A DNA stretch of 41,710 nucleotides from a virus. Within the stretch, counting starts at the first letter, position 1, and every line of letters begins with the position of its first letter. A program made the translations under genes and the position numbers. Where the stretch lies: the IMG/VR virus record IMGVR_UViG_3300033170_000005; one strand, written 5' to 3'. This document shows positions 8,706 to 41,710 of the stretch, piece by piece. A model generated the notes under the pieces. It was not told the origin of the DNA. It made no database searches and was given only the letters and a program-made list of their open reading frames with translations.

Positions 8706-8706
8706 T

Positions 8707-14723: not shown

Positions 14724-14767
14724 AAGCCCATGCGGGGGCCGCATCCCTTGCGTGGGCTTTTTGTTTT
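14724..14767 (+). terminator. Rho-independent terminator closing the ParB/MTase/rSAM operon
   Basis: aagccca(14724..14730) ... tgggctt(14753..14759) has further wobble-extended pairing and is followed by TTTTTGTTTT. Confidence 0.7.
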
Positions 14768-17347: not shown

Positions 17348-17548
17348 ATGGCCGACGAAACCATTCAAGACGCGATTGAAGAGACCGCCAAGGGCGTCCA
17401 GTCCGTTTCTGTTGATGGGCAGTCCGTTACGTCCATGGACATCGACAAGCTGATTCGCGCCGACGAGTACCTCGCGAAGAAAGCGGCTGCGTCGAAGAAT
17501 CACCTTGGCCTGTCGTTTCGGCAACTGAAGCCCGGAGGTTGTGGGTGA
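17348..17548 (+). CDS. gpW-like head-tail joining protein
   Basis: 66 aa. VDGQSVTSMDIDKLIRADEYLAKK...RQLKPGGCG parallels lambda gpW ([24 protein letters not shown]...RGPAGFYV). Its position between GpA-type TerL and the portal matches lambda. Confidence 0.6.
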   Translation: MADETIQDAIEETAKGVQSVSVDGQSVTSMDIDKLIRADEYLAKKAAASKNHLGLSFRQLKPGGCG

Positions 17549-19086
17549 GCATCCTTTCCCGAGTAACGTCGATCTTCCGTTCCGTCGCGACAGCGAGGCC
17601 CGTGCCTGAAGTGCGACAGGCGAAGACGGTGCGTGGACGCTATGACGCGGCCGGCGACGGAAGCGAGACGATCAACATTTGGGCCAGCGCCGACGCACTC
17701 AATGCAGACGCATCGAACTCGCTTGCCGTACGAACGAAGTTGCGGAACCGCGACCGCTACGAACGATCGAACAATGGCCATAAGGCTGGCATGCACCGGA
17801 CTCATGCGAATTACGTCATCGGCAAGGGGCCGACGCTGATGATGAAAACTGGTTCGCCTGGATTCAATGCCATGGTTGAATCCGAGTGGAATCGATGGGC
17901 GAAGGCTGCAAAGTTTGCTCGCAAGTTGCGACAACTGAACCGGGCCAAGACGGGAGACGGCGAAGCCCTCGCGGTCATCATTACCGACCTGGGGATTCGG
18001 CATCCGGTCAAGATCAATCTTCGGCCCGTCGAGTGCGACCGCCTAACGTCTCCGCAGTTTCGCACGGACGATGAGCGATACGTGGACGGAATCACGTTCG
18101 ACGAAAACGGGAACCCGCTTTATTACGACATTCTGGACCGTCACCCTGGAGCTACGGTCACATCCGGCGCGCTCGAAAAGTTCACGCGATACTCGGCCAC
18201 ATTCGTCTGCCACTGGTTTTTCGACGAACGACCCGAACAGCATCGCGGCGTTCCCGAAACGGCGGCAACGTTGAATTTGTTTCCGACCGCGCGGCGATTT
18301 CGGGAAGCTACCGTCGCCGCCGCCGAGACGGCCGCCGACTATTCGGCCGTGCTCGAAATGGGAATAGCCAGTGATGGCAATGACGAAGTCGCGCCGTTTA
18401 CCAGTCTGCCCATCGAAAAGCGGACGATGCTCGTTTCGCCGGCCGGCGCGTCGATCAAGCAACTGCAAGCCGAACATCCGGCGACCACCTACGAAATGTT
18501 CAATCGGTCCATCCTCTGCGAAGAGGCACGACCGCTGAACATGCCCTACAACATCGCGGCATGCGATTCGAGCGGATACAGCTACAGTGGCGGCCAACTC
18601 GACCACCAGACTTATTACGTCGCACTCGGGATTGAGCAACAAGAGTGTGAGGCCGACGTGGTAGAGCCGACCTTCGAGGCATGGTTCCGCGAGGCTCGCG
18701 AGAAGTTCGGTTGGAATTCGGAATTGGACTCCGTTCCGAAGCACGCTTGGGGCTGGCCAGGGAAACCGCACAACGATCCTGTCAAAACAGCCACCGCTCG
18801 CAAGATCGCTCTATCCACGGGAACCATGACGCTCGGGCGAATCTATGCGGAAGACGGTGCTGACTATGAAGACGCCCTCGACGAAATGGCCGTCGAGTAC
18901 GGCGTATCCGTGGATGAAATGAAACGCCGCATTCTCGACGCAAATCTCGCGGGCGGCGTGGATGTGTCGGACAGCACGCGACCGGATCGCGCGGAACAAA
19001 GCGACGTGGACGAAACCGAACGCGCCGAAGCGGCATTCGCCCAGCGCGTCATTAACGGCAATGGACATGCGAGGTTCACGATATGA
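17545..19086 (+). CDS. Portal protein, lambda (gpB) family
   Basis: About 513 aa, between the gpW-like and protease genes. GGAGG at 17534..17538 is 6 nt upstream of GTG 17545, which overlaps the gpW-like stop. The track start is TTG 17539. Confidence 0.8.
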   Translation: MSILSRVTSIFRSVATARPVPEVRQAKTVRGRYDAAGDGSETINIWASADALNADASNSLAVRTKLRNRDRYERSNNGHKAGMHRTHANYVIGKGPTLMMKTGSPGFNAMVESEWNRWAKAAKFARKLRQLNRAKTGDGEALAVIITDLGIRHPVKINLRPVECDRLTSPQFRTDDERYVDGITFDENGNPLYYDILDRHPGATVTSGALEKFTRYSATFVCHWFFDERPEQHRGVPETAATLNLFPTARRFREATVAAAETAADYSAVLEMGIASDGNDEVAPFTSLPIEKRTMLVSPAGASIKQLQAEHPATTYEMFNRSILCEEARPLNMPYNIAACDSSGYSYSGGQLDHQTYYVALGIEQQECEADVVEPTFEAWFREAREKFGWNSELDSVPKHAWGWPGKPHNDPVKTATARKIALSTGTMTLGRIYAEDGADYEDALDEMAVEYGVSVDEMKRRILDANLAGGVDVSDSTRPDRAEQSDVDETERAEAAFAQRVINGNGHARFTI

Positions 19087-21281: not shown

Positions 21282-22352
21282 ATGGCGCAAGTGCCCAGCA
21301 AACGCATCACCTCGCGTGGTGATGCCATCGACTACACGCCGTCCGCCGATGTGGTGGCTGGCGATGTGGTGAACTTCGGCGGAACGCCGCTGGTCGCCAC
21401 CCAAGCAATCGCGAACGGCGTTCTCGGCTCGCTCGCGACCGAAGGTGTCTTCGACGTGCCGAAGACCACCGACACGTTTACGGTCGGCGAATCGGTCTAC
21501 TGGAACCCGGCCGGAACGCCGGTCGCCGATGACACGGCTGTCGGTGCGGCCGACAATGCCACGGGCGACCTGATGGGGTTCGCCGTGGCGAACGCGACCA
21601 ACAACGCGAGTTACGTTCGCGTGAAGCTGACCGCCGCTGAACGGACCGCGACTCTCGCGGGTAGCGTCGGCGCGAATGACATCACGGGAACCGACGCGAC
21701 GCTCAACATCACTGGTATCGCCGGTAGTGATGGTGCCGGTGGTGCGGTTGCCGTCGCTGGTGGCGCGGGCGACGCCAACGAGGCAGGCGGTGCCGTCAGT
21801 GTAACCGGCGGTGCCGGCGGAACTGGCACAAGCAACGGTGCCGCTGCCAGTCTGATCGGTGGTGCGGCGGGAGCGGTCGGTGGAACGGGCGGTGCCGTCA
21901 CGGTCCGGTCGGGTGCCGGCGACGCTACCAACGGCACGGCCGGTGCTCTTGTCATCGACTCGGGCGCGGGCGCGACGAAAGGAGCGATCACCATCGCGAC
22001 CAACGCCGCGAGCCTCACGCTCGGCAAGATGCCTCGCATTCCGGTCGCCGCCGTCAACGCGGCCGGTGCCAATCAGGCAACCGCTGGAGCGCTGTCTGAG
22101 GGCGTCAATATCGTTGCGTTGGCCGACAACTCGGCAGGCGTTCGCCTACCGTCGTGCGTCGATGGTGCTCAGGTCATCATCATTTCGCAGACGACCGACA
22201 AGACGCTGAAGGTCTACCCGCCAACTGGCAAACAGGTCAACGGCGCGGGCGCGAACAATGCCGTCACACTTGCGGCGAATGGCACGGCGTACCTCGTTTC
22301 CGAGGGCGCCAACGCCTACTACGGCGGACTCATTGCGGGAATCATGTCGTAA
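21282..22352 (+). CDS. Head decoration-like protein (DUF2190-like N-terminus) with a Gly/Ala-rich repetitive extension
   Basis: N-terminus: GDAIDYTPSADVVAGDVVNFGGTPLVATQAIANGVLGSLATEGVFDVPK...VYWN. The middle has repeated GGAGG/TGGA tracts. It lies directly after the capsid gene. Confidence 0.6.
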   Translation: MAQVPSKRITSRGDAIDYTPSADVVAGDVVNFGGTPLVATQAIANGVLGSLATEGVFDVPKTTDTFTVGESVYWNPAGTPVADDTAVGAADNATGDLMGFAVANATNNASYVRVKLTAAERTATLAGSVGANDITGTDATLNITGIAGSDGAGGAVAVAGGAGDANEAGGAVSVTGGAGGTGTSNGAAASLIGGAAGAVGGTGGAVTVRSGAGDATNGTAGALVIDSGAGATKGAITIATNAASLTLGKMPRIPVAAVNAAGANQATAGALSEGVNIVALADNSAGVRLPSCVDGAQVIIISQTTDKTLKVYPPTGKQVNGAGANNAVTLAANGTAYLVSEGANAYYGGLIAGIMS

Positions 22353-22366
22353 TCGAACCTAGGTTA

Positions 22367-22418
22367 GCCTGCCGTGGCGCGACGACCCGCAACGTCGCTG
22401 CCACGGTGGGCGTTTTTT
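22367..22418 (+). terminator. Strong rho-independent terminator after the head genes
   Basis: gcctgccgtggcgcgacg(22367..22384) pairs with cgtcgctgccacggtgggc(..22411), with one bulge and two G-U pairs, and is followed by TTTTTT(22413..22418). Confidence 0.75.
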
Positions 22419-22431
22419 GCGGGACCAACCA

Positions 22432-24018
22432 ATGAGCAATGAAGCAAAACGCCATAACGTCTATCTCGCGATTCCCGGCAAACAATTTTGCTGGGGAACC
22501 ACGATCGGCGTTATCAATTCGACGCGGAAACACGCGGCCCATCCGTACAACGGCGGCATGGGATTTTCTGGAGTCATCGACTTCAACCTCTGTTTGACCG
22601 ACGCTCTCAATCTCTACGAAGAGGGCAAGGTTACGCACTTCGCCATGTTGCACGGCGACATCTCACCCGACTCGAACCAGCATTGGCTCGACATTCTTCT
22701 CGACATCATGGACGAAAAAGGCGCGGCCGTCGTGTCGGCCGTTTCGCCCATCAAGGACTTCCGTGGCGTCACGTCCACCGGCATTGGCGACCCGAACGAC
22801 CCGTGGGGCGCGTTCCGCCGATTCACGATGAAGGAAGTGTTGACGCAACTTCCCGAGACATTCGACGCAGCCGACTCGGGCTATCCCGACAAAGTGCTCT
22901 TGCACAACACGGGCTGCTGGGTGGCCGACCTATCCCATCCGTTTTTTCACGAAACGAACCAGGATGGAAGCCTGCGTCATTTCTTCGAGTTTCCGGAGAG
23001 GATTGTCCGCAACAAGGAAGGCAAGTGGGAACATCAACAGGAATCGGAAGACTGGCATTTCTCGCGGCAACTCTGGGAAGCCGGCGTTTACAATACGTGG
23101 ATCACGCGCAAAGTGCGATTCATGCACAAGGGCGGAATCGAATTCCCGAACTACGAAGACTTCGGGCAATTCAAAAACGGCGACGAAAACACGGCGGCCA
23201 AGTGGCGAACCGAACTCGAAGCCAAGCCGCTCGCGTTGACGCAAATGCTGCAATTCGAGTTGGGCACGGAGTGTAACCTTGCCGACCAGCACGACAGGTG
23301 CCCGAATCGCAGCCCGTTGCGATACGCGGGACTCGATACGTCGCACGAACTGGACGACCACACGATCATAGGGCTTGCCGTCCAAGCGTATCGTGACCTT
23401 GGCTTTACCGGATTCGTCGGATGGATTTACTACAACGAGCCGCTTCTGCAAGCCGACCGCATGTTCTCGCTAATGGAGCGGATCAAGGCCGAGGCACCGC
23501 AAGCCCGGTTCATTCTCTGGACGAACGGCACGCTTATGCCCGAGGAATGCGAACGGTTCGCCCAATTCGAGCAAATCATCGTAAGTGGATACAACGAGCA
23601 AAGCTATCGAGGCCGTGAACGACTTTTGGCGAAGAAAATCAATCTTCGCTACATGGACAAGCCGGAACTCGACGGCCGACTCCACCAAATCACGCCGGCG
23701 GATGCGTCGGCCCCGTGTTTTCGTCCGTTCGTCGAGTTCATCATCGACAACTACGGCAACACGCATCTGTGCTGCTATGACTGGCAAGGCAAAAGCACGT
23801 TCGGCAACGTGTTTCATGAGCCGTTTCCAATCATCGCTCAGCGATGGCGCGACATGCTTCCCAGCATCGCGGGACACAAGATGAGCGGCGAGGCCCCGGC
23901 GTGTTGCGTTGCGTGCGGACATCGATGGGACAAGTACCAGTGTCACGACGAGCGAATTGTTGATAGTGCCCGACGGTTCCGTGCCTCGCTTGAACCGAAA
24001 GCCGAGGTCGCAACATGA
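22432..24018 (+). CDS. Two-domain protein: glycosyltransferase-like N-terminal half fused to a radical-SAM-like/SPASM Cys-rich C-terminal half
   Basis: The C-terminus has C-x12-G-x4-C (CFRPFVEFIIDNYGNTHLC) followed by CCVAC...C, as in SPASM/twitch domains. The expected CxxxCxxC position reads CNLADQHDRC, which is non-canonical. The N-terminal call (...THFAMLHGDI...ESEDWHFSRQLWEAGV) is from memory. ATG 22432 is preferred because TTG 22417 lies in the terminator T-run. Confidence 0.55.
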   Translation: MSNEAKRHNVYLAIPGKQFCWGTTIGVINSTRKHAAHPYNGGMGFSGVIDFNLCLTDALNLYEEGKVTHFAMLHGDISPDSNQHWLDILLDIMDEKGAAVVSAVSPIKDFRGVTSTGIGDPNDPWGAFRRFTMKEVLTQLPETFDAADSGYPDKVLLHNTGCWVADLSHPFFHETNQDGSLRHFFEFPERIVRNKEGKWEHQQESEDWHFSRQLWEAGVYNTWITRKVRFMHKGGIEFPNYEDFGQFKNGDENTAAKWRTELEAKPLALTQMLQFELGTECNLADQHDRCPNRSPLRYAGLDTSHELDDHTIIGLAVQAYRDLGFTGFVGWIYYNEPLLQADRMFSLMERIKAEAPQARFILWTNGTLMPEECERFAQFEQIIVSGYNEQSYRGRERLLAKKINLRYMDKPELDGRLHQITPADASAPCFRPFVEFIIDNYGNTHLCCYDWQGKSTFGNVFHEPFPIIAQRWRDMLPSIAGHKMSGEAPACCVACGHRWDKYQCHDERIVDSARRFRASLEPKAEVAT

Positions 24019-26963: not shown

Positions 26964-27160
26964 CGCAGATGGCGGCCGGCGCGTGGGCCAAGATGCTTTG
27001 GCAGTCGATGCTGTTTCGGCAGACGATGGCGATGGATGACGGCGAATCTCCGATCGACCCGGACCCGTTTAGTTTGCTCGGCGGATTCGACCAGAAAGAA
27101 CAAGTCGCGCCATACAACCCGGCGATATGGAGCGGCATGGCGAAACACGGAGTAACCTGA
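26726..27160 (+). CDS. -1 frame extension giving a gpGT-like chaperone fusion (the ATG-initiated version is 26969..27160)
   Basis: Frame 2 is -1 relative to 26433..26963. It has no stop between 26651 and 27158 and ends 1 nt before the tape-measure ATG. Confidence 0.4.
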   Translation, partial: FFPEVDPTSVPKGARRDTEGTAETAEAPGGTDERSDVRGDDRQGSGADSRQWSERVIERCHELAGIAGVEPGLHTLRTLTQMAAGAWAKMLWQSMLFRQTMAMDDGESPIDPDPFSLLGGFDQKEQVAPYNPAIWSGMAKHGVT

Positions 27161-27161
27161 A

Positions 27162-28838
27162 ATGTCCAAAGCCCAAGGAGTCAGAGCCGGCCGCGCGTTC
27201 GTCGAAGTCTACGCCGACTCGAATCGTCTCGCCCGCGACTTCGCCAAGATCGGCCAACAGTTTCGTGCGTTCGGAGCGAGTGTGTCGGCCGTCGGAATAA
27301 AGATGATGGGCGTGGGCGCCGCAATCACCGCGCCCCTGGTCGGCGCGATTCGGCATTTCGCCAAGGCGGGTGACGCACTCGACAAGATGGCGGCACGCAC
27401 TGGCATCTCGACCAACGCCCTCTCCGAACTCGGCTTCGCCGCCGAACAAAGCGGATCGAGTATCGAAGCTGTTGAAAAGGCCATTCGATACATGCAGTAC
27501 ACGCTAGGCAGTTCCGGCAAGGGAACGGAAGCCGAGTTCATGGCTGTCATGGATGAATTGGCAACGATTCCAGACGCCACCGAACGAGCACAACGAGCAA
27601 TGCAGGTGTTTGGCTCGAGAAGCGGAACGGCGTTATTGCCCATGGTCGGGCAGATACGCAGCTTGCGAGAAGAGGCAGTCAAGCTCGGGTTGTCAGTTGG
27701 ACCCGAGCAGGCGAAGCGGGCGGCCGAAATGCAAGACGCATGGAACCGCCTAAAGCGTTCGACGATGGCCGTGTTTTTCAACATCGGTTCTGCCCTGGCT
27801 GGGTCGGGTCTTCTCGACAGCATCACGAATATCGTCGGGACCGTAAGTCGATGGGTGCGTGAGAACGGCCAGTTGATTCAGACAATCGCCAAACTGAGCG
27901 CCGGGCTCGTCGTGGGCGGCGCTGCTCTTGTCGTCATCGGCAAGGTGCTCGGCGTCATGGGTATTGCGATAGGCGGCATTGCGGCGGCCCTCGGGTCCAC
28001 GACGATCATGCTCGCCGGAGCGGCGGCCGGACTCGCCTACCTCGCTCGCAACACCGCGCCAATCAAAGCCGTCGGCAACGCGATATGGGATTACCTCGGG
28101 GATGTTCGCGCCGGATTCGGAACGCTCGTTGACGATGCGTCGAAAGCATGGCAAGGAATAAGCGACGCACTTACGGCGGGCAAGCTGGACCTTGCTTTCG
28201 AGGTCGTGACGAAAAGCATTGAGTTGCTATGGGCTCGCATGGTCGATTCACTACTCAATATCATAGAGCCATTCTACGCGGCATGGCAGGATTCCTGGAC
28301 GGTGATGCTGACATTTATGAAGACGACATGGGCGTCATGGGAGAAGATGCTGTACAGTAGTCCTCTCTACCAGCAAATCGTCGGCGGCGTGTCGGAAGCG
28401 TTGGGCGGACCCTCGGCGGCCGACGTTGGGTTGACCATGACGGGAATGGCGTCCACGAAAGACCAGGATATAGCGGACCTAAACGCGGGAGTCGCCGACC
28501 AAATTAACGCCAACGCCAAGGCGAGGCAAGCCGATATGGAGCGACGCGCGGCGGAAGTCGAGGCGGCCGAACGTGAACGCGACAAGGCACTCGTTCAAGC
28601 TCGGCAAGCAGCCGACTATGCGAGGCAAGAGCGAGAAGGCAGGACAAGGCCAGCTTTCGGCGGCGTTCCTAAATTCGGCGAAGGCGTCAAGTCTCGCATC
28701 GTCGGTACGTTCTCCGGTTCGGCCGCGAGCGGCCTCGGCGCCGGTGGCCCGATCGTCACGGAACTCAAGCGGCTGGTCATCACGGGCCGCGAGACGAACC
28801 GCAAACTTGACGAGCTTGCTCTGGAGGTGTCGCCGTGA
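27162..28838 (+). CDS. Tail tape measure protein
   Basis: 558 aa. The sequence has hydrophobic/Gly-Ala segments and AGDALDKMAARTGISTNALSELGFAAEQSGSSIEAVEKAIRYMQ (TP901-type TMP core pattern). It follows the chaperone pair. Confidence 0.85.
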   Translation: MSKAQGVRAGRAFVEVYADSNRLARDFAKIGQQFRAFGASVSAVGIKMMGVGAAITAPLVGAIRHFAKAGDALDKMAARTGISTNALSELGFAAEQSGSSIEAVEKAIRYMQYTLGSSGKGTEAEFMAVMDELATIPDATERAQRAMQVFGSRSGTALLPMVGQIRSLREEAVKLGLSVGPEQAKRAAEMQDAWNRLKRSTMAVFFNIGSALAGSGLLDSITNIVGTVSRWVRENGQLIQTIAKLSAGLVVGGAALVVIGKVLGVMGIAIGGIAAALGSTTIMLAGAAAGLAYLARNTAPIKAVGNAIWDYLGDVRAGFGTLVDDASKAWQGISDALTAGKLDLAFEVVTKSIELLWARMVDSLLNIIEPFYAAWQDSWTVMLTFMKTTWASWEKMLYSSPLYQQIVGGVSEALGGPSAADVGLTMTGMASTKDQDIADLNAGVADQINANAKARQADMERRAAEVEAAERERDKALVQARQAADYARQEREGRTRPAFGGVPKFGEGVKSRIVGTFSGSAASGLGAGGPIVTELKRLVITGRETNRKLDELALEVSP

Positions 28839-29638
28839 GTATTCAATGGGGACCACGACCGAACAGCGAACAACTCAGCCGCAAGTCGGCGACACTCGGT
28901 TATGTGCTATCAGGCGTGTCCGACGGCGCGACGGCCCGGGCATTGGCACTTGGCTATTCGGCGACGTTGCACTTGTCGCTGTTTCGCACCGACGTAGAAC
29001 TGCGAAAAATCACGCCAGACACATACCACGTTGACGTGCGCTACGGGACGCCCGACAAAAAGGAACCGTCGGCCGGGGAGTTTGCGTGGACGTTCGACAC
29101 GACGGGTGAGACGAAGCACGTTACGCAGGGCATTGGCAACGCCACGAGCTACGTCCCGGGCGGCAAGACGGCCGTGAACCACAAACGAGCTATCGGCGTG
29201 CAAGACGACGGGAGCGTCGCGGGCGTTGACGTTCCCGATCGTGCGTTCAAGTGGCAAGAGAAGCACCAGCTATTGCTCGCTTCCTACGGCTGGGCCTATT
29301 CACAATACCTCGGCGCGAACACCGGCAAAATCAACAGCGGTACCTTTCGCGGCTTCGGGGCCGGGACAGTTCGATTCGACGGCGCGCAAGGCGGTCAATC
29401 GTCTCGCGACCCAGACCTATTGGAACTGACCTACAACTTCGTATACTCGCCCGATGAATCGTCGCTCGCTGTCGGCGATATCACCGTCACGTCCAAGCCG
29501 GGCTGGCACTACCTATGGGTTCGCTACCAGTCCGAGGAAGACGCCGACGCGAAGAAGACCACGGAGCTTCCCTCGCAAGTGGACGTGGTTCCGGTTCTCT
29601 ATTCCTTTGACTTCGCCACCCTTGGAATTGGATCGTGA
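28835..29638 (+). CDS. Distal tail protein-like structural protein
   Basis: GGAGG is 7 nt upstream of GTG 28835, which overlaps the TMP stop. It is the first gene after the TMP. Confidence 0.45.
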   Translation: MSIQWGPRPNSEQLSRKSATLGYVLSGVSDGATARALALGYSATLHLSLFRTDVELRKITPDTYHVDVRYGTPDKKEPSAGEFAWTFDTTGETKHVTQGIGNATSYVPGGKTAVNHKRAIGVQDDGSVAGVDVPDRAFKWQEKHQLLLASYGWAYSQYLGANTGKINSGTFRGFGAGTVRFDGAQGGQSSRDPDLLELTYNFVYSPDESSLAVGDITVTSKPGWHYLWVRYQSEEDADAKKTTELPSQVDVVPVLYSFDFATLGIGS

Positions 29639-29641
29639 ACC

Positions 29642-30397
29642 ATGGCGCGCTATCAGAAATTGCGGGCGGGCGATCCGGTAACGAGAATCTCGGCGTCGGC
29701 CTACAACGAAATGATCGATATGCTCCAGTGGTGGCGTTCGGCGTTTCGCACGGGCGGCGGTCCGGTCGGCGGAACGGATTACGACCAAGGCGTCTTTCTC
29801 GCGAAGAATGAAACTGGCGGCAACTTGGCGGCCTACAGCGTTGTCGGCATCGGAGGGCCGCTGATTACGCCGACTGATAATCTCACTGAGTTCAAGAACC
29901 GGACTCCGCTTTCGGTCGTCACTCCAGATATCGATGCTCACGCGTCGGCGTTCGGCGTCGCGCTCGATATTTGCGGCACTGGAGCGTTCGTTCGCGTCTG
30001 CGTTTCCGGCTTGGTCCCCGTGTTGCTCGACGTGACGAATGAGGACGACACGTCGGCTGGAATCGACGACGGAGAAACGACGCATCTTGTCACTGGCGGA
30101 GAGGGCGTGCCGATCGTCTGGAAGGACGCGGCGGAGAAGGAAGATGGGAATGGGCATCGGTGGGGGCTGGTTTTGTTGGGCGGAAAGGTGATACTGCCTC
30201 CCGGCACAACCACCAACGACATTCTACGCTGGGAGGCCGACGAATCGGGCTCATCGTCGAGCGGCGAGGGCGGCCGGTGGGTAATCCATGAGGCACCGTC
30301 CGACGAGGGCGAGTGGGTGCTTGCCGTGGTCGAGGGCGTCATGCAGTGGCGAGAAGTCAAGCCGTTCACTTGCGGCGATGAATCGTCGGGGAGTTAG
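29642..30397 (+). CDS. Hypothetical tail/baseplate protein (251 aa)
   Basis: ORF track, in the tail module. It has Ser-rich patches near the C-terminus (ESGSSSSGEGG, ESSGS). Confidence 0.5.
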   Translation: MARYQKLRAGDPVTRISASAYNEMIDMLQWWRSAFRTGGGPVGGTDYDQGVFLAKNETGGNLAAYSVVGIGGPLITPTDNLTEFKNRTPLSVVTPDIDAHASAFGVALDICGTGAFVRVCVSGLVPVLLDVTNEDDTSAGIDDGETTHLVTGGEGVPIVWKDAAEKEDGNGHRWGLVLLGGKVILPPGTTTNDILRWEADESGSSSSGEGGRWVIHEAPSDEGEWVLAVVEGVMQWREVKPFTCGDESSGS

Positions 30398-30399
30398 TC

Positions 30400-30975
30400 A
30401 TGGCGTTCTATCGCAACCCCGACGGTAGCTTTCCAAGCGAACACGGCTACCCGGTTTTTGTTACGGAAGAACAGTATCGGGCGTGCTGCTGTGGGTCGAG
30501 TTCGTCGAGCGGGTCGTCGAGTTCGTCGGGCGGCTCGTCGAGTTCTTCGGAATCGTCAAGCAGTTCATCAGTTAATTATCTACTCGGGTGCGATGCGTGC
30601 GACGACGGCAAGCAGCCCTTGTCTGTCACGGCCGTGTTTCCGTCACTCGGAACCTTCGTCCTGGATGCATCGTATATTGGCGGTCAGCTCTTTCCGTGCT
30701 CATTCTGGACACTTGTCGGTTGGACCACACACATTCCACCGCGAAAGCTGTGGGGTACTTTTGACTTCTACCATTACGGGGGCGGAATAACGGAAGCCGT
30801 GCTTCGGATTGTTGAGACTGCCGGAACGGCACAATTCCCAAGTGATGGATTTTCCACGCTGATTGCAAGCTGGTCTGAATCATACGGTAGTCTCATCGAC
30901 TGTCTCAACTATGATGACGAACTTGCGCGAGTCAGTGGACCCTATATGGGCACGGCCCGTGTTTATGCGAATTGA
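30400..30975 (+). CDS. Hypothetical protein with a CCC motif and a 26-residue Ser/Gly tract
   Basis: ORF track. GSSSSSGSSSSSGGSSSSSESSSSSS is encoded at 30493..30570. Confidence 0.55.
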   Translation: MAFYRNPDGSFPSEHGYPVFVTEEQYRACCCGSSSSSGSSSSSGGSSSSSESSSSSSVNYLLGCDACDDGKQPLSVTAVFPSLGTFVLDASYIGGQLFPCSFWTLVGWTTHIPPRKLWGTFDFYHYGGGITEAVLRIVETAGTAQFPSDGFSTLIASWSESYGSLIDCLNYDDELARVSGPYMGTARVYAN

Positions 30976-32662
30976 CCGATGCCAGTTTGATCTTGTCTCA
31001 CAATCGCCAAGCGTCTGGCGGTGTGCCGTATGTGACTTTGAGTGGCGAGCCAAACACAACACCGAGTGCCCTCCGGTTAGGACATGCAGTCTGCATAGAG
31101 CATTTCCAACCCTGACCACGCAACTGACCAACTACCGAGACGCAATCAAACGCTACTGGAAAGCTGGCCGCCCGAAGCGAACCGACGCCGAAACCCATCT
31201 GCGCGTTCTGCTGTGCGCCGGGTGCCGACTGAATCGGGATGGACGCTGCACGGTGTGTGGTTGTCCGGTGAATGAAAAGAAACTCGCAATCAGGAACAAG
31301 GCCCGCATGGCTACCGAAGTCTGTCCAATCTGTCGATGGGAGAACTTTCCCGGCTCGCTATTCGAGCGGGTCTATTGCGTCAACCTCGACCGCCGCGAGG
31401 ATCGCTGGGAACGGTTCACGGCCGGAGTCCCCGCCGAGTGGCCGTGGCCCACGCCCGAACGATTCCCAGCCGTCGATGGGCAACGCTGCCCGCCGCCGCC
31501 CTGGTGGACCCAAGGACCGGGCGCATGGGGCTGCTATCGATCCCACCTGGCCATCATGGAACGGTGCCTGAACGAGGGCGTGGGATCGGTGTTGATCCTG
31601 GAAGACGACGCGGCGTTCATCGATGACTTCACCGCCAAGGCTACGCTCGCGCTGGCTGAAGTGCCGGATGATTGGGGGATGCTGTACCTTGGCGGGCAGC
31701 ATTTTAAGACGACGCCACCGACGCCGATCAGCGAGTACATTTTGAAGCCGGCTAACGTCCAGCGAACCCACGCCTACGCCCTTCGCGGGCAAACGCTCCG
31801 CGACGTGTACCAGTTCCTGAGCGACACGCAATCGGAAACCTGGAAGCCGCGACACCACGTCGATCACCGGCTGGGTGTGTTCCTCGAAACGCACGACGCG
31901 CCCGCCTACGCCGTGGCCCATTGGCTCGTTGGGCAGGGTGCTGGGCGAAGCGACGTCGGCGCGGGTAGCACGTCGGCCCGGTGGTGGCGCAACTCGGCCA
32001 CCACCGGCAAGCGAGCGATTCCGCAAGCCATCAAGCCGGTAGTTGCGGTGGTCGGCCCGTTCCGGTCTGGAACCTCATGCGTGGCTGGTGTTCTCCATAC
32101 CCTGGGCGTGTCGATGGGCGAGCGGTTCCGCCGTCCGATGAAGGGCAACCCGAAGGGCACGTTCGAGGCCGTGGCACTCGGCGAGTTGTGCCGCTCGTTC
32201 TTCACCGAGCCGGGTTGCCTGGAACGACAACCCCACGAGAAACGAGTCGCCGGGTTGCGGCGGTGGGCGGCGAGCAGGTCAGCGGGCAACTCGCCCACGA
32301 TCGGTGCGAAGCATCCACTGTTGTGCCTGATGATGACCGAAATGTGCGAAGCATGGCCCGGCGTCCGGTTTGTCTTCTGCGACCGACCGCCCAGCGAATC
32401 CAACGCGAGCATGGCGAAGTGGGGCGGCAAGTGGAAAGCCGCGAAACGCACGGCGGAAACGATGATCGAGGCCCGCGACGACAACGCGGCCGACATCACG
32501 AACCCGATCCTCCGCGTGGATTACCACGCCCTGTTGGCTGATCCGGCCGGGACCGTGGAACGGCTCATCGCCTTCCTTGGGTTGGATGTGCCGGCCGAAA
32601 CGCGACAAGCCGCGATCGACTTCATCGACCCCCAGTTGTGCCACCATGACCACCACGCCTAG
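30965..32662 (+). CDS. Three-part protein: Cys-rich zinc-ribbon N-terminus, GT25-family glycosyltransferase domain and C-terminal sulfotransferase domain
   Basis: VYCVNLDRREDRWERF...AVDG...GCYRSHLAIM...VLILEDDAAFIDDF matches the GT25 pattern. VVAVVGPFRSGTSCVAGVL matches the sulfotransferase PAPS 5'-phosphosulfate loop. ATG 30965 overlaps the upstream stop. The track start 30863 would overlap that gene by 113 nt. Confidence 0.65.
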   Translation: MRIDRCQFDLVSQSPSVWRCAVCDFEWRAKHNTECPPVRTCSLHRAFPTLTTQLTNYRDAIKRYWKAGRPKRTDAETHLRVLLCAGCRLNRDGRCTVCGCPVNEKKLAIRNKARMATEVCPICRWENFPGSLFERVYCVNLDRREDRWERFTAGVPAEWPWPTPERFPAVDGQRCPPPPWWTQGPGAWGCYRSHLAIMERCLNEGVGSVLILEDDAAFIDDFTAKATLALAEVPDDWGMLYLGGQHFKTTPPTPISEYILKPANVQRTHAYALRGQTLRDVYQFLSDTQSETWKPRHHVDHRLGVFLETHDAPAYAVAHWLVGQGAGRSDVGAGSTSARWWRNSATTGKRAIPQAIKPVVAVVGPFRSGTSCVAGVLHTLGVSMGERFRRPMKGNPKGTFEAVALGELCRSFFTEPGCLERQPHEKRVAGLRRWAASRSAGNSPTIGAKHPLLCLMMTEMCEAWPGVRFVFCDRPPSESNASMAKWGGKWKAAKRTAETMIEARDDNAADITNPILRVDYHALLADPAGTVERLIAFLGLDVPAETRQAAIDFIDPQLCHHDHHA

Positions 32663-33437
32663 AGTCTTTTCGTACTGGGAAGGCCCCATGCCACCATGGA
32701 TCGGGCTGTGCCTCGACACGATGCGTCGGAACATTCCGGGCGTCGAGATTCTCACCCGCCGCCAGTGGCGCGAGATGTACGACTTCCGCGACGTGCCGGG
32801 CGACAAGCTGGCGAAGCAACTGCCGAATTTGCGGAGCGATTTTATTCGGGCGTGGCTGTTGAAAACCTACGGCGGAATCTGGGTTGACGCCGACTGCATC
32901 GTATTCCGCGACTTGCGGCCGATCGACCAGCATCTCGACAAGGCCGACTTCGTGGCCTATCGAATCGGCCCGCCAACCCGCTCGCAATGTTCGGCCCTGA
33001 TTGCCTCGCGCCCGGGCGGCCGGCTTATCAAGGCGTACTACGGGGCCATGGTGGCGAGGCTGAATAATCACTGCTGTCGGTTGCCGCGATTGGCCCTGGG
33101 GCCGAACCTACTGGCCCGGACGATTCGACGGACGCGAGCCAACGTGCATCAACTGCCGACCGACATGGTGCATCCGCTGCACTGGCGACACCGGCGACGG
33201 AACCTGATGGCCGCCGGGACCGTGACCGTGCCCGAGGATGCCTACTGTTTCATGGCGACCCACCGGGCACTCGGGCCAGCCTCGACGTGGCCGGCTGCGA
33301 TGATTCGTGCGAGCGATACAGTGTTTGGGGAGATGATCCGGCGGGCCGAGCCCTCACCCGTGGAACCACCACGCACCGACGCGACCGACCGCGTAGACTG
33401 GAACCGCAACAACTCCAACCACGATTCCAATGAGTGA
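32646..33437 (+). CDS. GT32 / Caps_synth-like glycosyltransferase (DXD type)
   Basis: VFSYWEGPMPPWIGLCLDTM...LRSDFIRAWLLKTYGGIWVDADCI matches the capsular-polysaccharide-synthesis / OCH1-like sugar transferase pattern. Confidence 0.65.
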   Translation: MTTTPRVFSYWEGPMPPWIGLCLDTMRRNIPGVEILTRRQWREMYDFRDVPGDKLAKQLPNLRSDFIRAWLLKTYGGIWVDADCIVFRDLRPIDQHLDKADFVAYRIGPPTRSQCSALIASRPGGRLIKAYYGAMVARLNNHCCRLPRLALGPNLLARTIRRTRANVHQLPTDMVHPLHWRHRRRNLMAAGTVTVPEDAYCFMATHRALGPASTWPAAMIRASDTVFGEMIRRAEPSPVEPPRTDATDRVDWNRNNSNHDSNE

Positions 33438-33578
33438 TTGATTCACGCCGAGTTCGCCGGGCAGGCCGAACCCGACAAAGAAAAACCCGGCGCCAACGAG
33501 GATGCCGAGCACGCCGATTAGCTGGAGGAACTTCCAGAGTTTCCCGGTAGATTCGATCGTCTGAACTTGTCGGCTCAT
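33354..33578 (-). CDS. Small integral membrane protein (2-3 TM), the only convincing minus-strand gene
   Basis: GGGAGGG lies 5 nt upstream of the ATG on the minus strand. The sequence is ...FLQLIGVLGILVGAGFFFVGFGLPG...LIGIVVGVVAVPVYAVG... It overlaps the 3' end of 32646..33437 convergently by 84 nt. Confidence 0.65.
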   Translation of the reverse strand: MSRQVQTIESTGKLWKFLQLIGVLGILVGAGFFFVGFGLPGELGVNQSLIGIVVGVVAVPVYAVGRVGAWWFHG

Positions 33579-33717
33579 ATCGCCCTCCCGTTAACGCCCC
33601 GCACTCTCACCCTACCCACCGCTCCCGGCGGCTGTCAACCGCCGATCGGCCAATCCTGGGCCATTCTGAGCGATTCTGGCGGATACCCCCCGGTGGAAAT
33701 TATTTTGGGAATTTTTG

Positions 33718-33742
33718 GGAATATCTCTTGCGTGGATATTCC
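33718..33742. promoter_or_regulatory. Perfect 8-bp inverted repeat GGAATATC-N9-GATATTCC overlapping the -35 box (operator candidate)
   Basis: Read directly from the sequence. A tandem TTTTGGGAA x2 lies immediately upstream (33703..33721). Confidence 0.45.
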
Positions 33743-33755
33743 GATAGTGTATAAT
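33728..33755 (+). promoter_or_regulatory. Sigma70-like early promoter: TTGCGT-16 nt-TATAAT
   Basis: The -35 box is at 33728..33733 and a consensus -10 box is at 33750..33755. This lies in an AT-richer intergenic region about 50 nt upstream of the first early gene. Confidence 0.6.
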
Positions 33756-33803
33756 AAGAAACAGTGAGGGGCAAGCAACCACGAGCTAACAGGAGACTCG
33801 ACC

Positions 33804-34772
33804 ATGACCATCAAAATCGAGACCGACAAGCGACGACGATACCTGACCGGCGATACCTATCCATTCCGCGATCAAATCCGCGCGGCCGGCTGCAGGTGGG
33901 ATCCTGACCGCAAAGCATGGTGGACCGCCAAGGCCGACGTCGCCGAGCGAATCGTCCGCGAGTGCGAGGGCCTGGCCGCCGGCGAGCACACGCTGTGCCC
34001 GCCGAAAAAATACAACACCATCGTCCGCCAGAATGGCGGCGTCTGGGACGAGACCCGACGCGCCTGGGTGTTCGCCACCGCCGAGGCCAAAGCCGCGGCC
34101 GAGCGCGAAATCGCCTCGCGGACGTCGCGTGCGACGCGCGAGCGCGAGGAAGTCGCCAAAGCCGAGGCGGCACGCAAGCTGGCCTCCACGAAATCAGCCG
34201 AACAACTCCTGGCCGACGCCGGCCGCGAGCGTCGCGACGGCGACCGCCGGACCTATATCCTCCCGCTCGGTCACGGCCGGCGAGTGCAGGTCGCCCGCGC
34301 GATGCCCGAGGTGGGCGAGATTGTCCCGCGGAAGGACGGCCCGTGGATGATCGTCGAGGTCGGCCAGATGACGCTGGTGACCGACGACATGATCGAGGAC
34401 ATGGACGCATGGTCCACGTATCGCGATGGATCGGGCTGGTACGTCGACTACGCGGCGATCCCGGTCCGGCCGACCACTCAGGAGGCAGCTCGCCAAGCAG
34501 CGGCCGAGGCCAAGGCGACCGCCGAGTCGCGACTCCGCGAGATCACCCACATCGTCCAGCAGAGCAGCAATGCCGTCGAGGACATCGCCGATCCGGCCAG
34601 CCTCACCCCAGTCCGGTACACCGGCCGCGCCGGCGGCAGCGAGTCGCTGTCGGCCGACGAACACCGGATCGTGTACAGCACGAGCAGCTATGACGACGGC
34701 CCGCGCCACTGGGAGCTGCGTGACGCCGCCCTGGCCGCCGAGGCCCTGCGACTCCGAGAGACGGTGGCCTGA
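33804..34772 (+). CDS. Hypothetical early protein with two N-terminal GxxWDxxxKAWW-type (DUF5710-like) repeats
   Basis: AGGAG ribosome-binding site. The repeats are IRAAGCRWDPDRKAWWTAK and VRQNGGVWDETRRAWVFAT. Confidence 0.6.
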   Translation: MTIKIETDKRRRYLTGDTYPFRDQIRAAGCRWDPDRKAWWTAKADVAERIVRECEGLAAGEHTLCPPKKYNTIVRQNGGVWDETRRAWVFATAEAKAAAEREIASRTSRATREREEVAKAEAARKLASTKSAEQLLADAGRERRDGDRRTYILPLGHGRRVQVARAMPEVGEIVPRKDGPWMIVEVGQMTLVTDDMIEDMDAWSTYRDGSGWYVDYAAIPVRPTTQEAARQAAAEAKATAESRLREITHIVQQSSNAVEDIADPASLTPVRYTGRAGGSESLSADEHRIVYSTSSYDDGPRHWELRDAALAAEALRLRETVA

Positions 34773-36494: not shown

Positions 36495-36553
36495 GCCCCC
36501 GCGTCGCGTTTGCCAATTTTCGCATGGATGCGGCGCGGCGTGGGGGCTTTTTT
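36495..36553 (+). terminator. Terminator-like hairpin C (14-bp stem, T6), 18 nt upstream of the ParB-paralog start
   Basis: gcccccgcgtcgcg(36495..36508) pairs with cgcggcgtgggggc(36534..36547), including two G-U pairs, and is followed by TTTTTT. Confidence 0.6.
36521..36540 (+). repeat. 20-nt exact repeat cgcatggatgcggcgcggcg, copy 1 (copy 2 at 37148..37167); boundary of the ParB-paralog duplication
   Basis: Identical 20-mers lie 32 nt and 28 nt upstream of the two paralog start codons, and similar sequence follows each copy. Confidence 0.8.
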
Positions 36554-36571
36554 ATTCAAACGGAGAAACCC

Positions 36572-37207
36572 ATGATGGAACTGACTATTGACCCGGAGTT
36601 CGAGGGACTATGTCCCGCGTTGACGCCAGAAGAATTCAACCTGCTCGAACAGAGTATTATCGACGAAGGGTGCCGTGACCCGATTGTCGTCTGGGCGAAC
36701 CACGCCGACACGATTCTCGACGGCCACAACCGCTACCAGATTTGCACGCGGTGGGACAAGCCGTTCAAGACGAAGGCTCTCAAACTGGCCACCCGCGACG
36801 ATTCCGTCAACTGGATCATCGCCAACCAGCTCGGCCGGCGGAATCTGACGGAGTCGCAGAAGTCATACCTTCGCGGGAAGCGATATCAGGCGGAGAAGAA
36901 GGCCCATGGTGATCGTGGCCCTGAAAAGACTGCCCAAAATGGGCAATCTTTTTCTGGAACCGCCGAACGTCTCGGCGAAGAGTACAGCGTAAGCAAGAAC
37001 ACCATCCGCCGCGATGCGGAGTTCGCCGACGCCGTCGACAAGATCGAAAAAACGTCAGGGCCGGAGGCGAAAGCGGCGGTCCTTTCCGGCAAGGCCCGCA
37101 AGCAAGAGGTTATCGCAGCGGCGGCTCTACCTCTCATCAAGCAGCGCCGCATGGATGCGGCGCGGCGCGAGGGTTTTCCTGAAAGGATGCACATATGCAA
37201 GAACTGA
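36572..37207 (+). CDS. ParB N-terminal domain protein, paralog 1 (DGHNR motif)
   Basis: GGAG is 6 nt upstream of ATG 36572. The sequence MMELTIDPEFEGL...IVVWANHADTILDGHNRYQICTRWDKPFKTKALK aligns colinearly with the next gene. Confidence 0.7.
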   Translation: MMELTIDPEFEGLCPALTPEEFNLLEQSIIDEGCRDPIVVWANHADTILDGHNRYQICTRWDKPFKTKALKLATRDDSVNWIIANQLGRRNLTESQKSYLRGKRYQAEKKAHGDRGPEKTAQNGQSFSGTAERLGEEYSVSKNTIRRDAEFADAVDKIEKTSGPEAKAAVLSGKARKQEVIAAAALPLIKQRRMDAARREGFPERMHICKN

Positions 37208-37965
37208 CGATCGACAAGGAATTCGAGGGTCTACTGCCACCACTTACGGCAGAGCAATTCAATCTACTGGAAACCGGGATAACCGCCCAAGGATGCTTAC
37301 AGCCAATCATCGTATGGGCGAACCACGAAGACACAATTCTTGACGGCCACAACCGCTACCGAATTTGCACCCGATTCGACATCCCATTCAAGACCAAGGC
37401 CCTCAAGTTCGAGAGCCGCGAGGACGTGATAGCCTGGATCAAGCAGCACGCTCGTGGGCAACGCAACATGACGGAAGAGCAGCTGTCCGATCTTCGCGGG
37501 GCTGAGTATGAGCGGGAGAAAAAACCGCCTGGCCACCCTCAACTTCCCCACGGTGGGGAAGTAAGTGATGGACCGACACGAAAGAAACTGGCAAAAAAAC
37601 ACGGTGTTGGGGCAAGCACGATAGACCGCGATGCCAAGTTTCACAAGGCCCTCAACACCATCGCCGAAACATGCGGGGCACCCGCCAAGGAGAAGATACT
37701 AATGGGCGAAAGCGGACTGACGAAATCCCAAGTCGTCAAGGCGGCGACGTTGCCAGCGAAGAAAATGCAAGCCGCAATCAAAAACGGCAAGTTACCAAGC
37801 GGGTCGGAAGGCCGCCCTATCGTTCGCAATCCCGTTGTTGAAGCCATGCAGTTTGCTCGCATGGCGATTGAAGACCTGAAGCGAATTACGCCGGAAGACC
37901 CGGAACGAGAAAAGGCGTTTTGTCACGTTGAAAAGTGGATTAACTCACAAAGGAGTATGTCATGA
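37195..37965 (+). CDS. ParB N-terminal domain protein, paralog 2 (DGHNR motif)
   Basis: MQELTIDKEFEGL...IIVWANHEDTILDGHNRYRICTRFDIPFKTKALK. The C-terminal halves diverge from paralog 1. Confidence 0.7.
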   Translation: MQELTIDKEFEGLLPPLTAEQFNLLETGITAQGCLQPIIVWANHEDTILDGHNRYRICTRFDIPFKTKALKFESREDVIAWIKQHARGQRNMTEEQLSDLRGAEYEREKKPPGHPQLPHGGEVSDGPTRKKLAKKHGVGASTIDRDAKFHKALNTIAETCGAPAKEKILMGESGLTKSQVVKAATLPAKKMQAAIKNGKLPSGSEGRPIVRNPVVEAMQFARMAIEDLKRITPEDPEREKAFCHVEKWINSQRSMS

Positions 37966-41445: not shown

Positions 41446-41710
41446 ATGGCGTTGCAGTCAGCCCATCGCGGCGAAAGTCTACGCAAGGACGCCGAGACGG
41501 TTGATACGGCCCTTGCCTCGCTGGTCGCCTGCCCAGACCTCTCAGTGGTCGACGGACGGCTCGTGACGGAAACCGTCCGCGGGATCACGCCGTTTGGCGA
41601 ACTTTCCGAGGGCGAGCGGTGGGCCTTGGCGCTGCGAATCGCGGCCGAGCAGGTCGGCGAGCACGGGCTGATCGTTGTGCCGCAAGAGGCGTGGGAAGGG
41701 CTCGACGCGG
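41446..41710 (+). CDS. 5' part of the junction-spanning ORF (continues at 128..231 after circularisation; about 122 aa in total)
   Basis: ATG 41446 is in frame 1, and there is no stop before the window end. The same frame continues through the repeat to TGA 229..231. Confidence 0.5.
   Translation, partial: MALQSAHRGESLRKDAETVDTALASLVACPDLSVVDGRLVTETVRGITPFGELSEGERWALALRIAAEQVGEHGLIVVPQEAWEGLDA
41584..41710. repeat. Terminal direct repeat, copy 2 (identical to 1..127)
   Basis: Direct comparison of both ends. The unit genome length is therefore 41,583 bp. Confidence 0.97.

Follow-up and report, generated by a model that had tools for sequence, protein, structure and literature searches.

Serine-rich repeat glycoproteins of Gram-positive bacteria (Fap1, GspB, Srr) are exposed fibrillar proteins on whose serines adjoining cytoplasmic glycosyltransferases (GTs) build an O-glycan before export or assembly, and the GtrABC seroconversion systems are made of membrane proteins that are encoded beside an integrase or attachment site and expressed from the prophage. 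Among phages, mycobacteriophages are reported to encode enzymes that glycosylate their virion proteins (Freeman et al. 2023, cited here through PMC12619734, the source of all statements on that system below). Here we analyse a cassette of three open reading frames (ORF1, ORF2 and ORF3) that directly follows the tail genes in the viral record IMGVR_UViG_3300033170_000005, the whole stretch of which (41,710 nucleotides, nt) is called the window below. ORF1 contains a poly-serine (poly-Ser) tract, ORF2 is a fusion of a family 25 glycosyltransferase with a sulfotransferase (GT25-ST), and ORF3 is a second predicted glycosyltransferase. With moderate confidence we favour the reading that the cassette acts in the cytoplasm on proteins of the phage itself, O-glycosylating and sulfating poly-Ser linkers in its tail-end or fibre proteins. 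The evidence that carries this reading is comparative, since Ser tracts and glycosyltransferase genes occur together across related loci. The features concerned are as follows, in window coordinates.

28835 to 29638, plus strand: g267, a conserved tail protein encoded directly after the tape-measure gene
29642 to 30397, plus strand: g251, a putative tail or fibre-anchor protein of 251 amino acids (aa)
30400 to 30975, plus strand: ORF1, a putative tail-fibre or receptor-binding protein of 191 aa
30484 to 30570, plus strand: CCC motif and 26-residue Ser/Gly tract, read from the sequence, the proposed acceptor of O-glycosylation and sulfation
30965 to 31354, plus strand: N-terminal cysteine (Cys)-rich domain of ORF2, with 12 Cys in aa 1-130 arranged in paired CxxC-type motifs
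31361 to 31999, plus strand: GT25 domain of ORF2, GT-A fold, EDD motif at 31601-31609 (aa 213-215)
32027 to 32644, plus strand: sulfotransferase domain of ORF2, with the GPFRSGTS loop, R474...S482 and E401
32646 to 33437, plus strand: ORF3, a GT32/Caps_synth-like DXD glycosyltransferase of 263 aa, with its ATG at 32646

Tail-end proteins and their serine tracts

ORF1 starts with MAFYRNPDGSFPSEHGYPVFVTEEQYRACCCG, continues with GSSSSSGSSSSSGGSSSSSESSSSSS (30493-30570) and ends with a C-terminal part of 134 aa. Its architecture is therefore that of a conserved 28-aa N-terminal adaptor, a CCCG motif, a poly-Ser tract and an orphan C-terminal domain. The tract, which comes directly after CCC, had been pointed out in an earlier note made from the letters of this DNA alone, and it is present as described there, with 21 Ser, 4 Gly and 1 Glu in 26 residues and with its serines encoded by a mixture of five codons (TCG, AGT, AGC, TCT and TCA). 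It is the sole stretch of the window with at least 12 Ser in 20 aa, and among the real genes of the window runs of four or more Ser are confined to g251 and ORF1, with none in the capsid or tube genes. The Ser-rich patches that the same note had mentioned in the preceding tail protein do exist in g251, but they are modest (SGSSSSGEGG at 30245-30274 and the C-terminal GDESSGS).

The g251 protein is composed of a conserved N-terminal domain (aa 1-190), the short Ser patch and a C-terminal module ending in CGDESSGS. A word-indexed search gave just five proteins, and an exhaustive HMMER search was needed to reveal the family of its N-domain (3001 representative proteins), in which the domain is always N-terminal and the C-termini vary. 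Residues 1-190 show homology to the N-terminal parts of long poly-Ser proteins in related phages; in these relatives the long tract thus lies in the g251 equivalent, whereas in the window g251 has a short patch and the long tract is found in ORF1. Poly-Ser does not appear to be a general trait of g251-type tail proteins, since a Ser tract is present in 4 of the 149 top representatives of the N-domain family (~3%). The AlphaFold2 model of g251 has a predicted local distance difference test (pLDDT) value of 81, and a fold search with it gave weak matches only (E of 5e-3 at best, TM ~0.2-0.35), to the base of the phi29 head fibre and to decoration proteins of capsids.

A search of 5.8 billion proteins with ORF1 returned one match, which has aa 1-45 in common and an unrelated C-terminal domain, and no Pfam or PHROG family matched ORF1. 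A close relative on a Logan contig of 1.65 kb (L296; L numbers designate the loci compared here) keeps the last 80 aa of g251 at 75% identity, ORF1 residues 1-28 at 89% together with CCCG and a Ser run, and the N-domain of ORF2 at 52%, while its g251 N-domain and its ORF1 C-domain are unrelated to those of the window. We considered this contig as a counter-example in which ORF1 occurs without a transferase and rejected it, because ORF1 is succeeded there by the N-domain of ORF2, at which point the contig stops. Since the ORF1 N-adaptor and the g251 C-module are conserved while the domains that flank them are swapped, the tract is taken as a fibre linker. Its place at a module boundary, between a conserved docking interface (the C-terminus of g251 and the N-terminus of ORF1) and an exchangeable distal domain, would fit the pattern of a fibre.

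The enzymes and their packing with the tail genes

ORF2 (30965-32662) encodes 565 aa from the ATG at 30965, an alternative TTG at 30863 giving 599 aa, and joins the Cys-rich N-domain to a GT25 and a Sulfotransfer_3 domain. This fusion, like the assignment of ORF3, had been proposed from the translation, and profile searches, a structure model and a fold search confirm it; the hidden Markov model searches with PF01755, the sulfotransferase family, PF05704 and PF04488 all gave matches above the curated cut-offs. Glyco_transf_25 (PF01755) scored 31.7 bits against a cut-off of 24 (1.8e-7; profile positions 66-120 only), and all 29 homologues that were aligned (alignment A1) have E213, D214 and D215 unchanged. 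In the AlphaFold model of ORF2 both catalytic domains are confident, mostly with pLDDT >90 (the GT part, aa 133-345, lies above 90), and the N-terminal 130 residues have low pLDDT. The best Foldseek matches of the GT25 domain in the PDB were human COLGALT1 (E 1e-10) and mimivirus R655. A profile built from A1 and compared with PDB sequences likewise found COLGALT1 (5e-12 over 128 positions), with the EDD of ORF2 aligned to its FEDD, and R655 (2.5e-8), the bacterial GT25 galactosyltransferases reaching just 3e-3. With its modelled fold and its acidic DXD-like motif intact, this domain of ORF2 is a predicted glycosyltransferase.

The sulfotransferase assignment rests on a nearly complete match to Sulfotransfer_3 (PF13469; 39.3 bits against a cut-off of 27, 1.1e-9, profile positions 1-214 of 216). 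The 5′-phosphosulfate loop GPFRSGTS lies at aa 364-371 (32054-32077) and the 3′-phosphate motif R474...S482 at 32384-32410; G364, G369, S371, E401, R474 and S482 are invariant among the same 29 homologues, and E401 is a plausible catalytic base. In a subgroup of homologues the Arg of the loop is replaced (GLHSSGSS), and the protein of the window keeps it. Foldseek matched this domain in the PDB to Mycobacterium tuberculosis Stf1, M. avium Stf9 and the human and tick tyrosylprotein sulfotransferases (TPSTs), and the A1 profile gave Stf1 at 4e-6 and TPST1 at 5e-4. Given that COLGALT1 and the TPSTs are among the closest solved matches, the nearest characterised relatives of both ORF2 domains act on proteins; fold similarity leaves the acceptor of ORF2 undefined.

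The Cys-rich N-domain, which is probably zinc-binding, has weak matches to DUF6171 and phrog_13558. As it forms a stand-alone gene of ~125-130 aa at the end of the tail module in L137, L138 and L144, all of which lack both a glycosyltransferase and a Ser tract, we regard it as an independent module that is fused in ORF2. In L158 the domain is encoded immediately upstream of a GT4 gene, with which it overlaps. Stand-alone copies lie at 11850-12242 in L137, 9203-9571 in L144 and 5930-6160 in L158.

ORF3 matches both Caps_synth (PF05704; 37 bits against 24.5, 3.2e-9) and Gly_transf_sug (PF04488; 30.3 bits against 23, 7.2e-7) and has a DXD motif, VDADC, at aa 80-84 (32883-32897). Its homologues are found directly downstream of GT25-ST in 20 loci. 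In one homologue of ORF2, P0010, an ORF3-like domain (aa 469-700; 52% identity to ORF3, E 3e-69) is fused C-terminally to GT25-ST, which ties ORF2 and ORF3 to a single pathway.

A gap of 2 nt separates g251 from ORF1, ORF1 overlaps ORF2 by 11 nt, and ORF2 overlaps ORF3 by 17 nt; to judge by this spacing, the cassette is packed with the tail genes as one translational unit. A scan for promoters and terminators did no better than on shuffled sequence, and on the plus strand from the tail genes to the cassette there was no strong promoter-like or terminator-like site. Neither ORF2 nor ORF3 has a transmembrane segment (maximum Kyte-Doolittle value, KD(19), <1.5). A 74-aa ORF with two hydrophobic segments (33354-33578, minus strand) is convergent on the 3′ end of ORF3 and overlaps it, and is followed by a non-coding stretch of 220 nt before the next plus-strand gene at 33804.

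The GT25-sulfotransferase family

The earlier note had called sulfotransferase domains rare in phages and knew of no such fusion. The fusion itself is not rare, since a protein search found more than 717 homologues of the fusion and at least 277 IMG/VR viral contigs encode a relative of ORF2. A unique invention by this phage was considered and is ruled out by the existence of so large a family. The fusion nevertheless appears to be undescribed: literature searches on planctomycete phage sulfotransferases, serine-rich glycosylated tail fibres and polyserine O-glycosylation returned nothing relevant and no description of the family.

Most homologues have 430-460 aa and lack the N-terminal Cys-rich part. 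Named sources include Thermogutta, Pirellulales, Rubripirellula, Rubinisphaera and Phycisphaerae, and among 54 loci in GTDB species genomes nearly all full-length ones belong to Planctomycetota, with matches to GT25 only in Schlesneria and Verrucomicrobiota. The locus in the complete genome of Schlesneria sp. T3-172 (L112) has just the N-domain and the GT25 part. From this distribution we conclude that the fusion is a large family centred on planctomycete phages and prophages. The host of the present phage is probably a planctomycete.

The genes downstream of GT25-ST, counted in 44 dereplicated loci, comprise Methyltransf_24 (11 cases), GT2 (7), DXD glycosyltransferases (7), Caps_synth (6) and GT8 (2), along with GT11, an Stf0 sulfotransferase and a GDP-mannose dehydratase. 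These glycan-tailoring neighbours point to a glycan that would be variable and made in several steps. Some loci without a same-strand tract upstream are still those of phages, as they have portal, terminase and minor tail genes.

In two loci, giant RHS/YD-repeat proteins (2126-2458 aa) are encoded beside GT25-ST on the opposite strand (L005 2288-9661 and L087 3122-9499, both on the minus strand), and these proteins have Ser-rich stretches (GGSSSYSGGSSSY...).

Co-occurrence of serine tracts and glycosyltransferase genes

The association was counted in the 83 loci whose GT25-ST homologue is full-length and has 3 kb or more of sequence upstream of it, a tract being defined strictly as at least 12 Ser in 20 aa in an open frame on the same strand within 4 kb upstream. 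Such a tract is present in 61 of the 83 loci (73%). The tracts are specific in position, concentrated at -3 to 0 kb with a peak density of 0.52 per kb between -2 and -1 kb, and in strand, with almost none on the opposite one; the remaining 929 kb of the same loci hold 6 strict tracts, a background of 0.026 per 4 kb. When the threshold is relaxed to 10 Ser in 20, 82% of the loci qualify, and the background rises to 0.11 per 4 kb. The association is kept after dereplication by enzyme identity, in 22 of 40 clusters at 70% and in 13 of 21 at 50%. The first two contexts opened, a prophage in a Thermogutta metagenome-assembled genome (MAG) (L001) and a Joint Genome Institute contig (L002), both have GT25-ST directly after the tail module, another glycosyltransferase next and Ser-rich proteins with tracts of ~50-250 residues before it; L001 counts under the strict definition and L002 does not, its SSDPP-type repeats being less Ser-dense.

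The tracts upstream of GT25-ST are 30 to 432 residues long and nearly always come after a cysteine motif of the form CxC, CC or CxCC. In 44 of 51 unique tracts at least one Cys is found in the 10 residues before the first SSS, and in 36 of the 51 there are at least two, compared with an overall Cys content of 2.5%. Typical lead-ins are GCRCCDGSSSS, ECECGSSSS and CDCGSSS, the corresponding sequence of the window being CCCGSSSSS.

Two further regularities of these proteins were observed. The tracts are often followed by a Cys/Trp motif of the type C..C.W.W (L003-L118, 0-4 kb upstream of GT25-ST), and one large group of tracts has the lead-in HFHEDT..GCRCCDG, the HxH of which resembles metal sites of other phage fibres.

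As a control, we collected phages by their tail protein g267, independently of any glycosyltransferase. Homologues of g267 occur in 32 GT25-ST loci and in at least 580 IMG/VR stretches, and 78 new loci were examined from among the latter. The 27 of these with at least 5 kb of downstream sequence were counted, 10 with a Ser tract and 17 without. A glycosyltransferase gene comes immediately after the tract gene in 7 of the 10 loci with a tract, while none of the 17 tract-free loci has a detectable one (Fisher p = 1.4e-4). The enzymes belong to different families: GT25-ST in L201, Mannosyl_trans3 in L152 and L189, a GT32-like DXD enzyme in L171, L182 and L186, and in L158 a series of GT4, GT2 and a GT7C/radical-SAM fusion. 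The co-occurrence is therefore independent of the glycosyltransferase family. At the same place the tract-free loci carry restriction-modification, BREX, integrase or methylase genes. Counted by lineage (g267 clusters at 80%), there are 4 with tract and glycosyltransferase, 3 with the tract only, 14 with neither and 0 with a glycosyltransferase only. One lineage shows both states, L152 and L189 having tract and glycosyltransferase and their close relative L169 neither.

In the lineages with a tract only, the gene just upstream of the tract gene has sub-threshold MptE-like matches (E 1e-3 to 1e-2; L165 12184-13158, L170 6796-7776 and L208 9643-10809). The MptE domain is typical of Maf flagellin glycosyltransferases, and the genes, on this weak evidence, may represent a further type of glycosyltransferase in the same role.

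Proposed function and alternative explanations

Decoration of the phage's own virion proteins was one of two readings put forward in the earlier note, and the comparative data favour it, both in the frequency of tracts upstream of GT25-ST (73% against ~3% per 4 kb) and in the co-variation of tract and glycosyltransferase. Under this hypothesis g251, ORF1, ORF2 and ORF3 would be co-expressed with the tail genes. In the cytoplasm ORF2, through its soluble GT25 domain, would transfer a hexose from a uridine diphosphate (UDP)-sugar to the serine hydroxyls of the Cys-flanked ORF1 tract, the short tract of g251 possibly being a target as well; ORF3 would add a further sugar, and the sulfotransferase domain of ORF2 would sulfate the glycan with 3′-phosphoadenosine 5′-phosphosulfate (PAPS). 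The product could be a mucin-like, polyanionic, extended and protease-resistant stalk, joining the 28-aa N-terminus of ORF1, which would dock to the virion, to a fast-evolving and presumably receptor-binding C-terminal domain. What the analysis shows are the identities of the domains with their motifs intact, the packing of the operon, and a conserved synteny and co-variation between poly-Ser genes and glycosyltransferases; from these we infer the acceptor, the sugar donor, the target of sulfation, the incorporation of ORF1 into the virion and the benefit to the phage.

Several points weigh against self-decoration. The acceptor, the donor and the sulfation are predictions from sequence comparison and models. 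Both g251 and ORF1 are putative virion components, the structural role of g251 being assigned by position, and the fold matches of g251 are too weak to name the protein. The tract of the window is short (26 aa) next to those of its relatives (median 63 aa, maximum 432 aa). About 6% of GT25-ST loci have no Ser-rich neighbour even at the relaxed cut-off, and three Ser-tract lineages of the control set have no glycosyltransferase above threshold. The loci are phylogenetically related, and their synteny is partly due to shared descent. The absence of a glycosyltransferase from the 17 tract-free loci was called with 25 of 44 Pfam families and BLAST against a glycosyltransferase panel, which a divergent enzyme could escape. 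Finally, some homologues are found in chromosomal-looking contexts beside giant RHS or cadherin/FG-GAP proteins, kinases and sigma factors. These non-phage contexts fit a general role in modifying exposed repetitive proteins; GT25-ST may also serve repetitive proteins outside phages, and the family is not restricted to virions.

The other reading in the earlier note was that the enzymes remodel the host surface, modifying lipopolysaccharide, capsule, exopolysaccharide or a surface protein in the course of infection or in the lysogen, so that superinfection is blocked or the serotype changed, in which case the Ser-tract neighbours would be unrelated. GT25, Caps_synth and GT32 are, by their Pfam names, classically polysaccharide or lipooligosaccharide enzymes, bacterial GT25 galactosyltransferases were also matched, though more weakly, and the window has a separate receptor cluster with beta-helix and lectin proteins at 7884-12568. 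Many relatives are moreover prophages in MAG chromosomes, and a minority of homologues have chromosomal contexts. This reading has nevertheless fared less well and we consider it unlikely, since ORF2 and ORF3 are devoid of transmembrane segments and profile searches of the window gave no flippase-type (Gtr-like) family. The genes also overlap tail genes instead of lying beside an attachment site or integrase; the genome is complete, and the ORFs scanned in it included no integrase. Host remodelling would leave unexplained both the strand- and position-specific link to poly-Ser and the fact that different glycosyltransferase families track the tracts.

It could also be that there is no functional link at all, the tracts being unmodified flexible linkers or recombination joints and the glycosyltransferase genes cargo at the variable end of the tail module. 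Domains are indeed swapped exactly at the tracts, the region after the tail genes is a site of variable cargo (the restriction-modification, BREX and methylase genes of the tract-free relatives), some Ser-tract loci lack a clear glycosyltransferase, and all the loci are those of related phages. Mere cargo is, however, difficult to reconcile with the contrast between 0 of 17 tract-free and 7 of 10 tract loci, with a repetition of the association by at least four different glycosyltransferase families and with a base rate of tracts of ~3% in the tail-protein family; the pairing is also seen outside phages, with the Ser-rich RHS proteins. We thus rate this explanation as improbable.

A variant of the glycosylation model is that the sulfotransferase acts directly on protein, sulfating Tyr or Ser hydroxyls of the tail proteins, while GT25 glycosylates independently. 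We find it distinctly unlikely. The tract of the window has no Tyr, and since the domain is obligately fused to a glycosyltransferase in hundreds of proteins, the two probably carry out successive steps on a single product. Among solved structures the tyrosylprotein sulfotransferases match ORF2 almost as well as Stf1 and Stf9, and its GPFRSGTS loop resembles the PRSGTT loop of the TPSTs, but within the sulfotransferase superfamily the acceptor cannot be predicted from a similar fold. Also in favour of this variant, Tyr-Ser repeats such as SSYSSSGSSYSSS and PSYSWPSYS abound in the tracts of several relatives.

A bolder extension of self-decoration, which we judge very unlikely, is that the phage adsorbs through the sulfated mucin-like glycan of the fibre. 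Planctomycetes capture and import sulfated polysaccharides of algal or host type, which this glycan would mimic, so that the polysaccharide-binding apparatus of the host would seize the virion, and the CxC or CC followed by poly-Ser would be a new O-glycosylation sequon read by GT25-ST. Normally it is a protein of the phage that binds a glycan of the host, and the roles would here be reversed.

No GT25, GT32 or sulfotransferase is known to modify DNA, and this counts against a role in DNA hypermodification. The notion that the transferases glycosylate phage DNA bases and thereby evade restriction is scarcely credible in any case, for although phage glycosyltransferases often act on DNA (PMC12619734), Pfam scans of the larger ORFs of the window gave no base-hydroxymethylase or related family, and the position in the tail operon and the association with Ser tracts would be left unexplained.

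If self-decoration is correct, the cassette would be a second and mechanistically distinct case of phages glycosylating their own virions and the first with predicted sulfation. It would also be widespread, extending to hundreds of viral contigs from a phylum whose phages have hardly been studied. Its genomic signature, glycosyltransferase genes after the gene of a tail-end protein with a Cys-flanked poly-Ser tract, is predictive and makes the idea directly testable. The cassette is also a candidate for an O-glycosylation and sulfation system of bacterial type whose acceptor is simple and repetitive, a property of use in glyco-engineering. When viral contigs are annotated, genes for glycosyltransferases and sulfotransferases are routinely counted as auxiliary metabolic genes that act on the carbohydrate or sulfur metabolism of the host; in the present case a part in building the virion is more likely, and caution is thus advisable in the annotation of metagenomes.

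Genome context and other features

With an exact direct repeat of 127 nt at its two ends (1-127 and 41584-41710), the window represents the complete genome of a phage, ~41.58 kb long and either terminally redundant or assembled as a circle. The region 27000-34000 had no match by blastn among 50,697 GenBank phages and thus no annotated relative there, and tRNA and Rfam scans of the window found nothing. Outside the cassette the following features were assigned.

7884 to 12568: probable receptor-binding or depolymerisation cluster, upstream of the packaging genes
7884 to 8705: Laminin_G_3 lectin-like protein
9921 to 11417: right-handed beta-helix protein
11399 to 12568: protein with a prealbumin/SpaA-like domain
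14730 to 16934: large terminase
17539 to 19086: lambda-type portal
19083 to 21212: protease-capsid fusion
21282 to 22352: cement or decoration protein
27162 to 28838: tape measure protein, with PHROG tape-measure matches

The cluster at 7884-12568 also encodes a 405-aa protein without an assigned role, and elsewhere the window encodes a RusA, YqaJ and RecT recombination set and a Cro/CI-type helix-turn-helix protein. Between the head-decoration gene and the tail genes lies an ORF of 533 aa (22417-24018), unusual in a structural module, with a C-terminal match to the SPASM iron-sulfur domain (8.5e-5) and a weak one to Fer4_12. We considered it as a relative of the GT7C-radical-SAM fusion that adjoins the Ser-tract gene in L158 and found no similarity. 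A second ORF, weakly similar to radical-SAM/DUF5131 proteins, is found at 13755-14657.

The phage carries a mini-array of clustered regularly interspaced short palindromic repeats (CRISPR) with one spacer, made of two copies of a 29-nt type I-E-like repeat, GTCTTCCCCGCACGTGCGGGGATGAACCG, around a spacer of 32 nt (3217-3306). The core of the repeat occurs in 81 metagenome stretches, mostly in long arrays with a 61-nt period (L215-L294), and the full repeat had no exact match in the metagenomes. The spacer of the mini-array had no exact target in IMG/VR, and none of the spacers of the metagenome arrays with the repeat core matches the window. Lastly, a diverged tandem duplication at 36521-37424 (243 nt at 71% identity, 623-627 nt apart) corresponds to two paralogous early genes, 36524-37207 and 37195-37965, which match no family.

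Comparison with known systems

At the level of the single domains, the GT25 part of ORF2 shares its fold and EDD motif with COLGALT1 (GLT25D1) and mimivirus R655, and COLGALT1, too, glycosylates a protein hydroxyl in a repetitive sequence. It differs in that the identity to COLGALT1 is ~22%, the human enzyme adds galactose to hydroxylysine in collagen, and COLGALT1 has a second, non-catalytic GT domain and no fusion to a sulfotransferase. The PAPS-binding fold, the 5′-phosphosulfate-binding loop and the Arg/Ser motif that binds the 3′-phosphate are common to ORF2, TPST1/2 and Stf1/Stf9, from which ORF2 is separated by its low identity (12-18%) and by its fusion to a glycosyltransferase.

As for whole gene sets, GtrABC cassettes are likewise phage-borne sugar-transfer genes, but unlike them ORF2 and ORF3 are predicted to be soluble, lie in the tail operon and track poly-Ser genes. 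The loci of Ser-rich repeat glycoproteins resemble the present one in that the gene of a Ser-rich substrate stands beside glycosyltransferases. Those loci have SxSx dipeptides and no sulfotransferase, whereas here a near-pure Ser tract, a phage tail and a sulfotransferase are involved, and no domains of a GtfA/GtfB pair or of an accessory SecA2/Y2 system are among the profile matches of the window.

The O-glycosylation of mycobacteriophage virions (Che8, Corndog, Myrna), as far as PMC12619734 summarises it, is similar in that the glycosyltransferase genes are found with structural genes and that, in the cytoplasm, their products decorate virion proteins of the same phage, as has been shown or is supposed. 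A corresponding position within or next to the structural block is seen here in the window, in L001 and L002 and, by homology to the tail genes of the window, in many other loci. The mycobacteriophage glycans are described in the same source as lying on the C-termini of capsid and tail-tube subunits, while the candidate acceptors here are internal, Cys-flanked poly-Ser tracts. The enzymes also differ, being here a GT25-sulfotransferase fusion and a GT32 enzyme, as do the predicted sulfation and the probable host phylum (Planctomycetota), in a system that is predicted from its genes. The cassette thus resembles both the mycobacteriophage and the Gram-positive Ser-rich systems and is a member of neither, since its acceptor sites, its enzyme families and its predicted sulfation set it apart from them.

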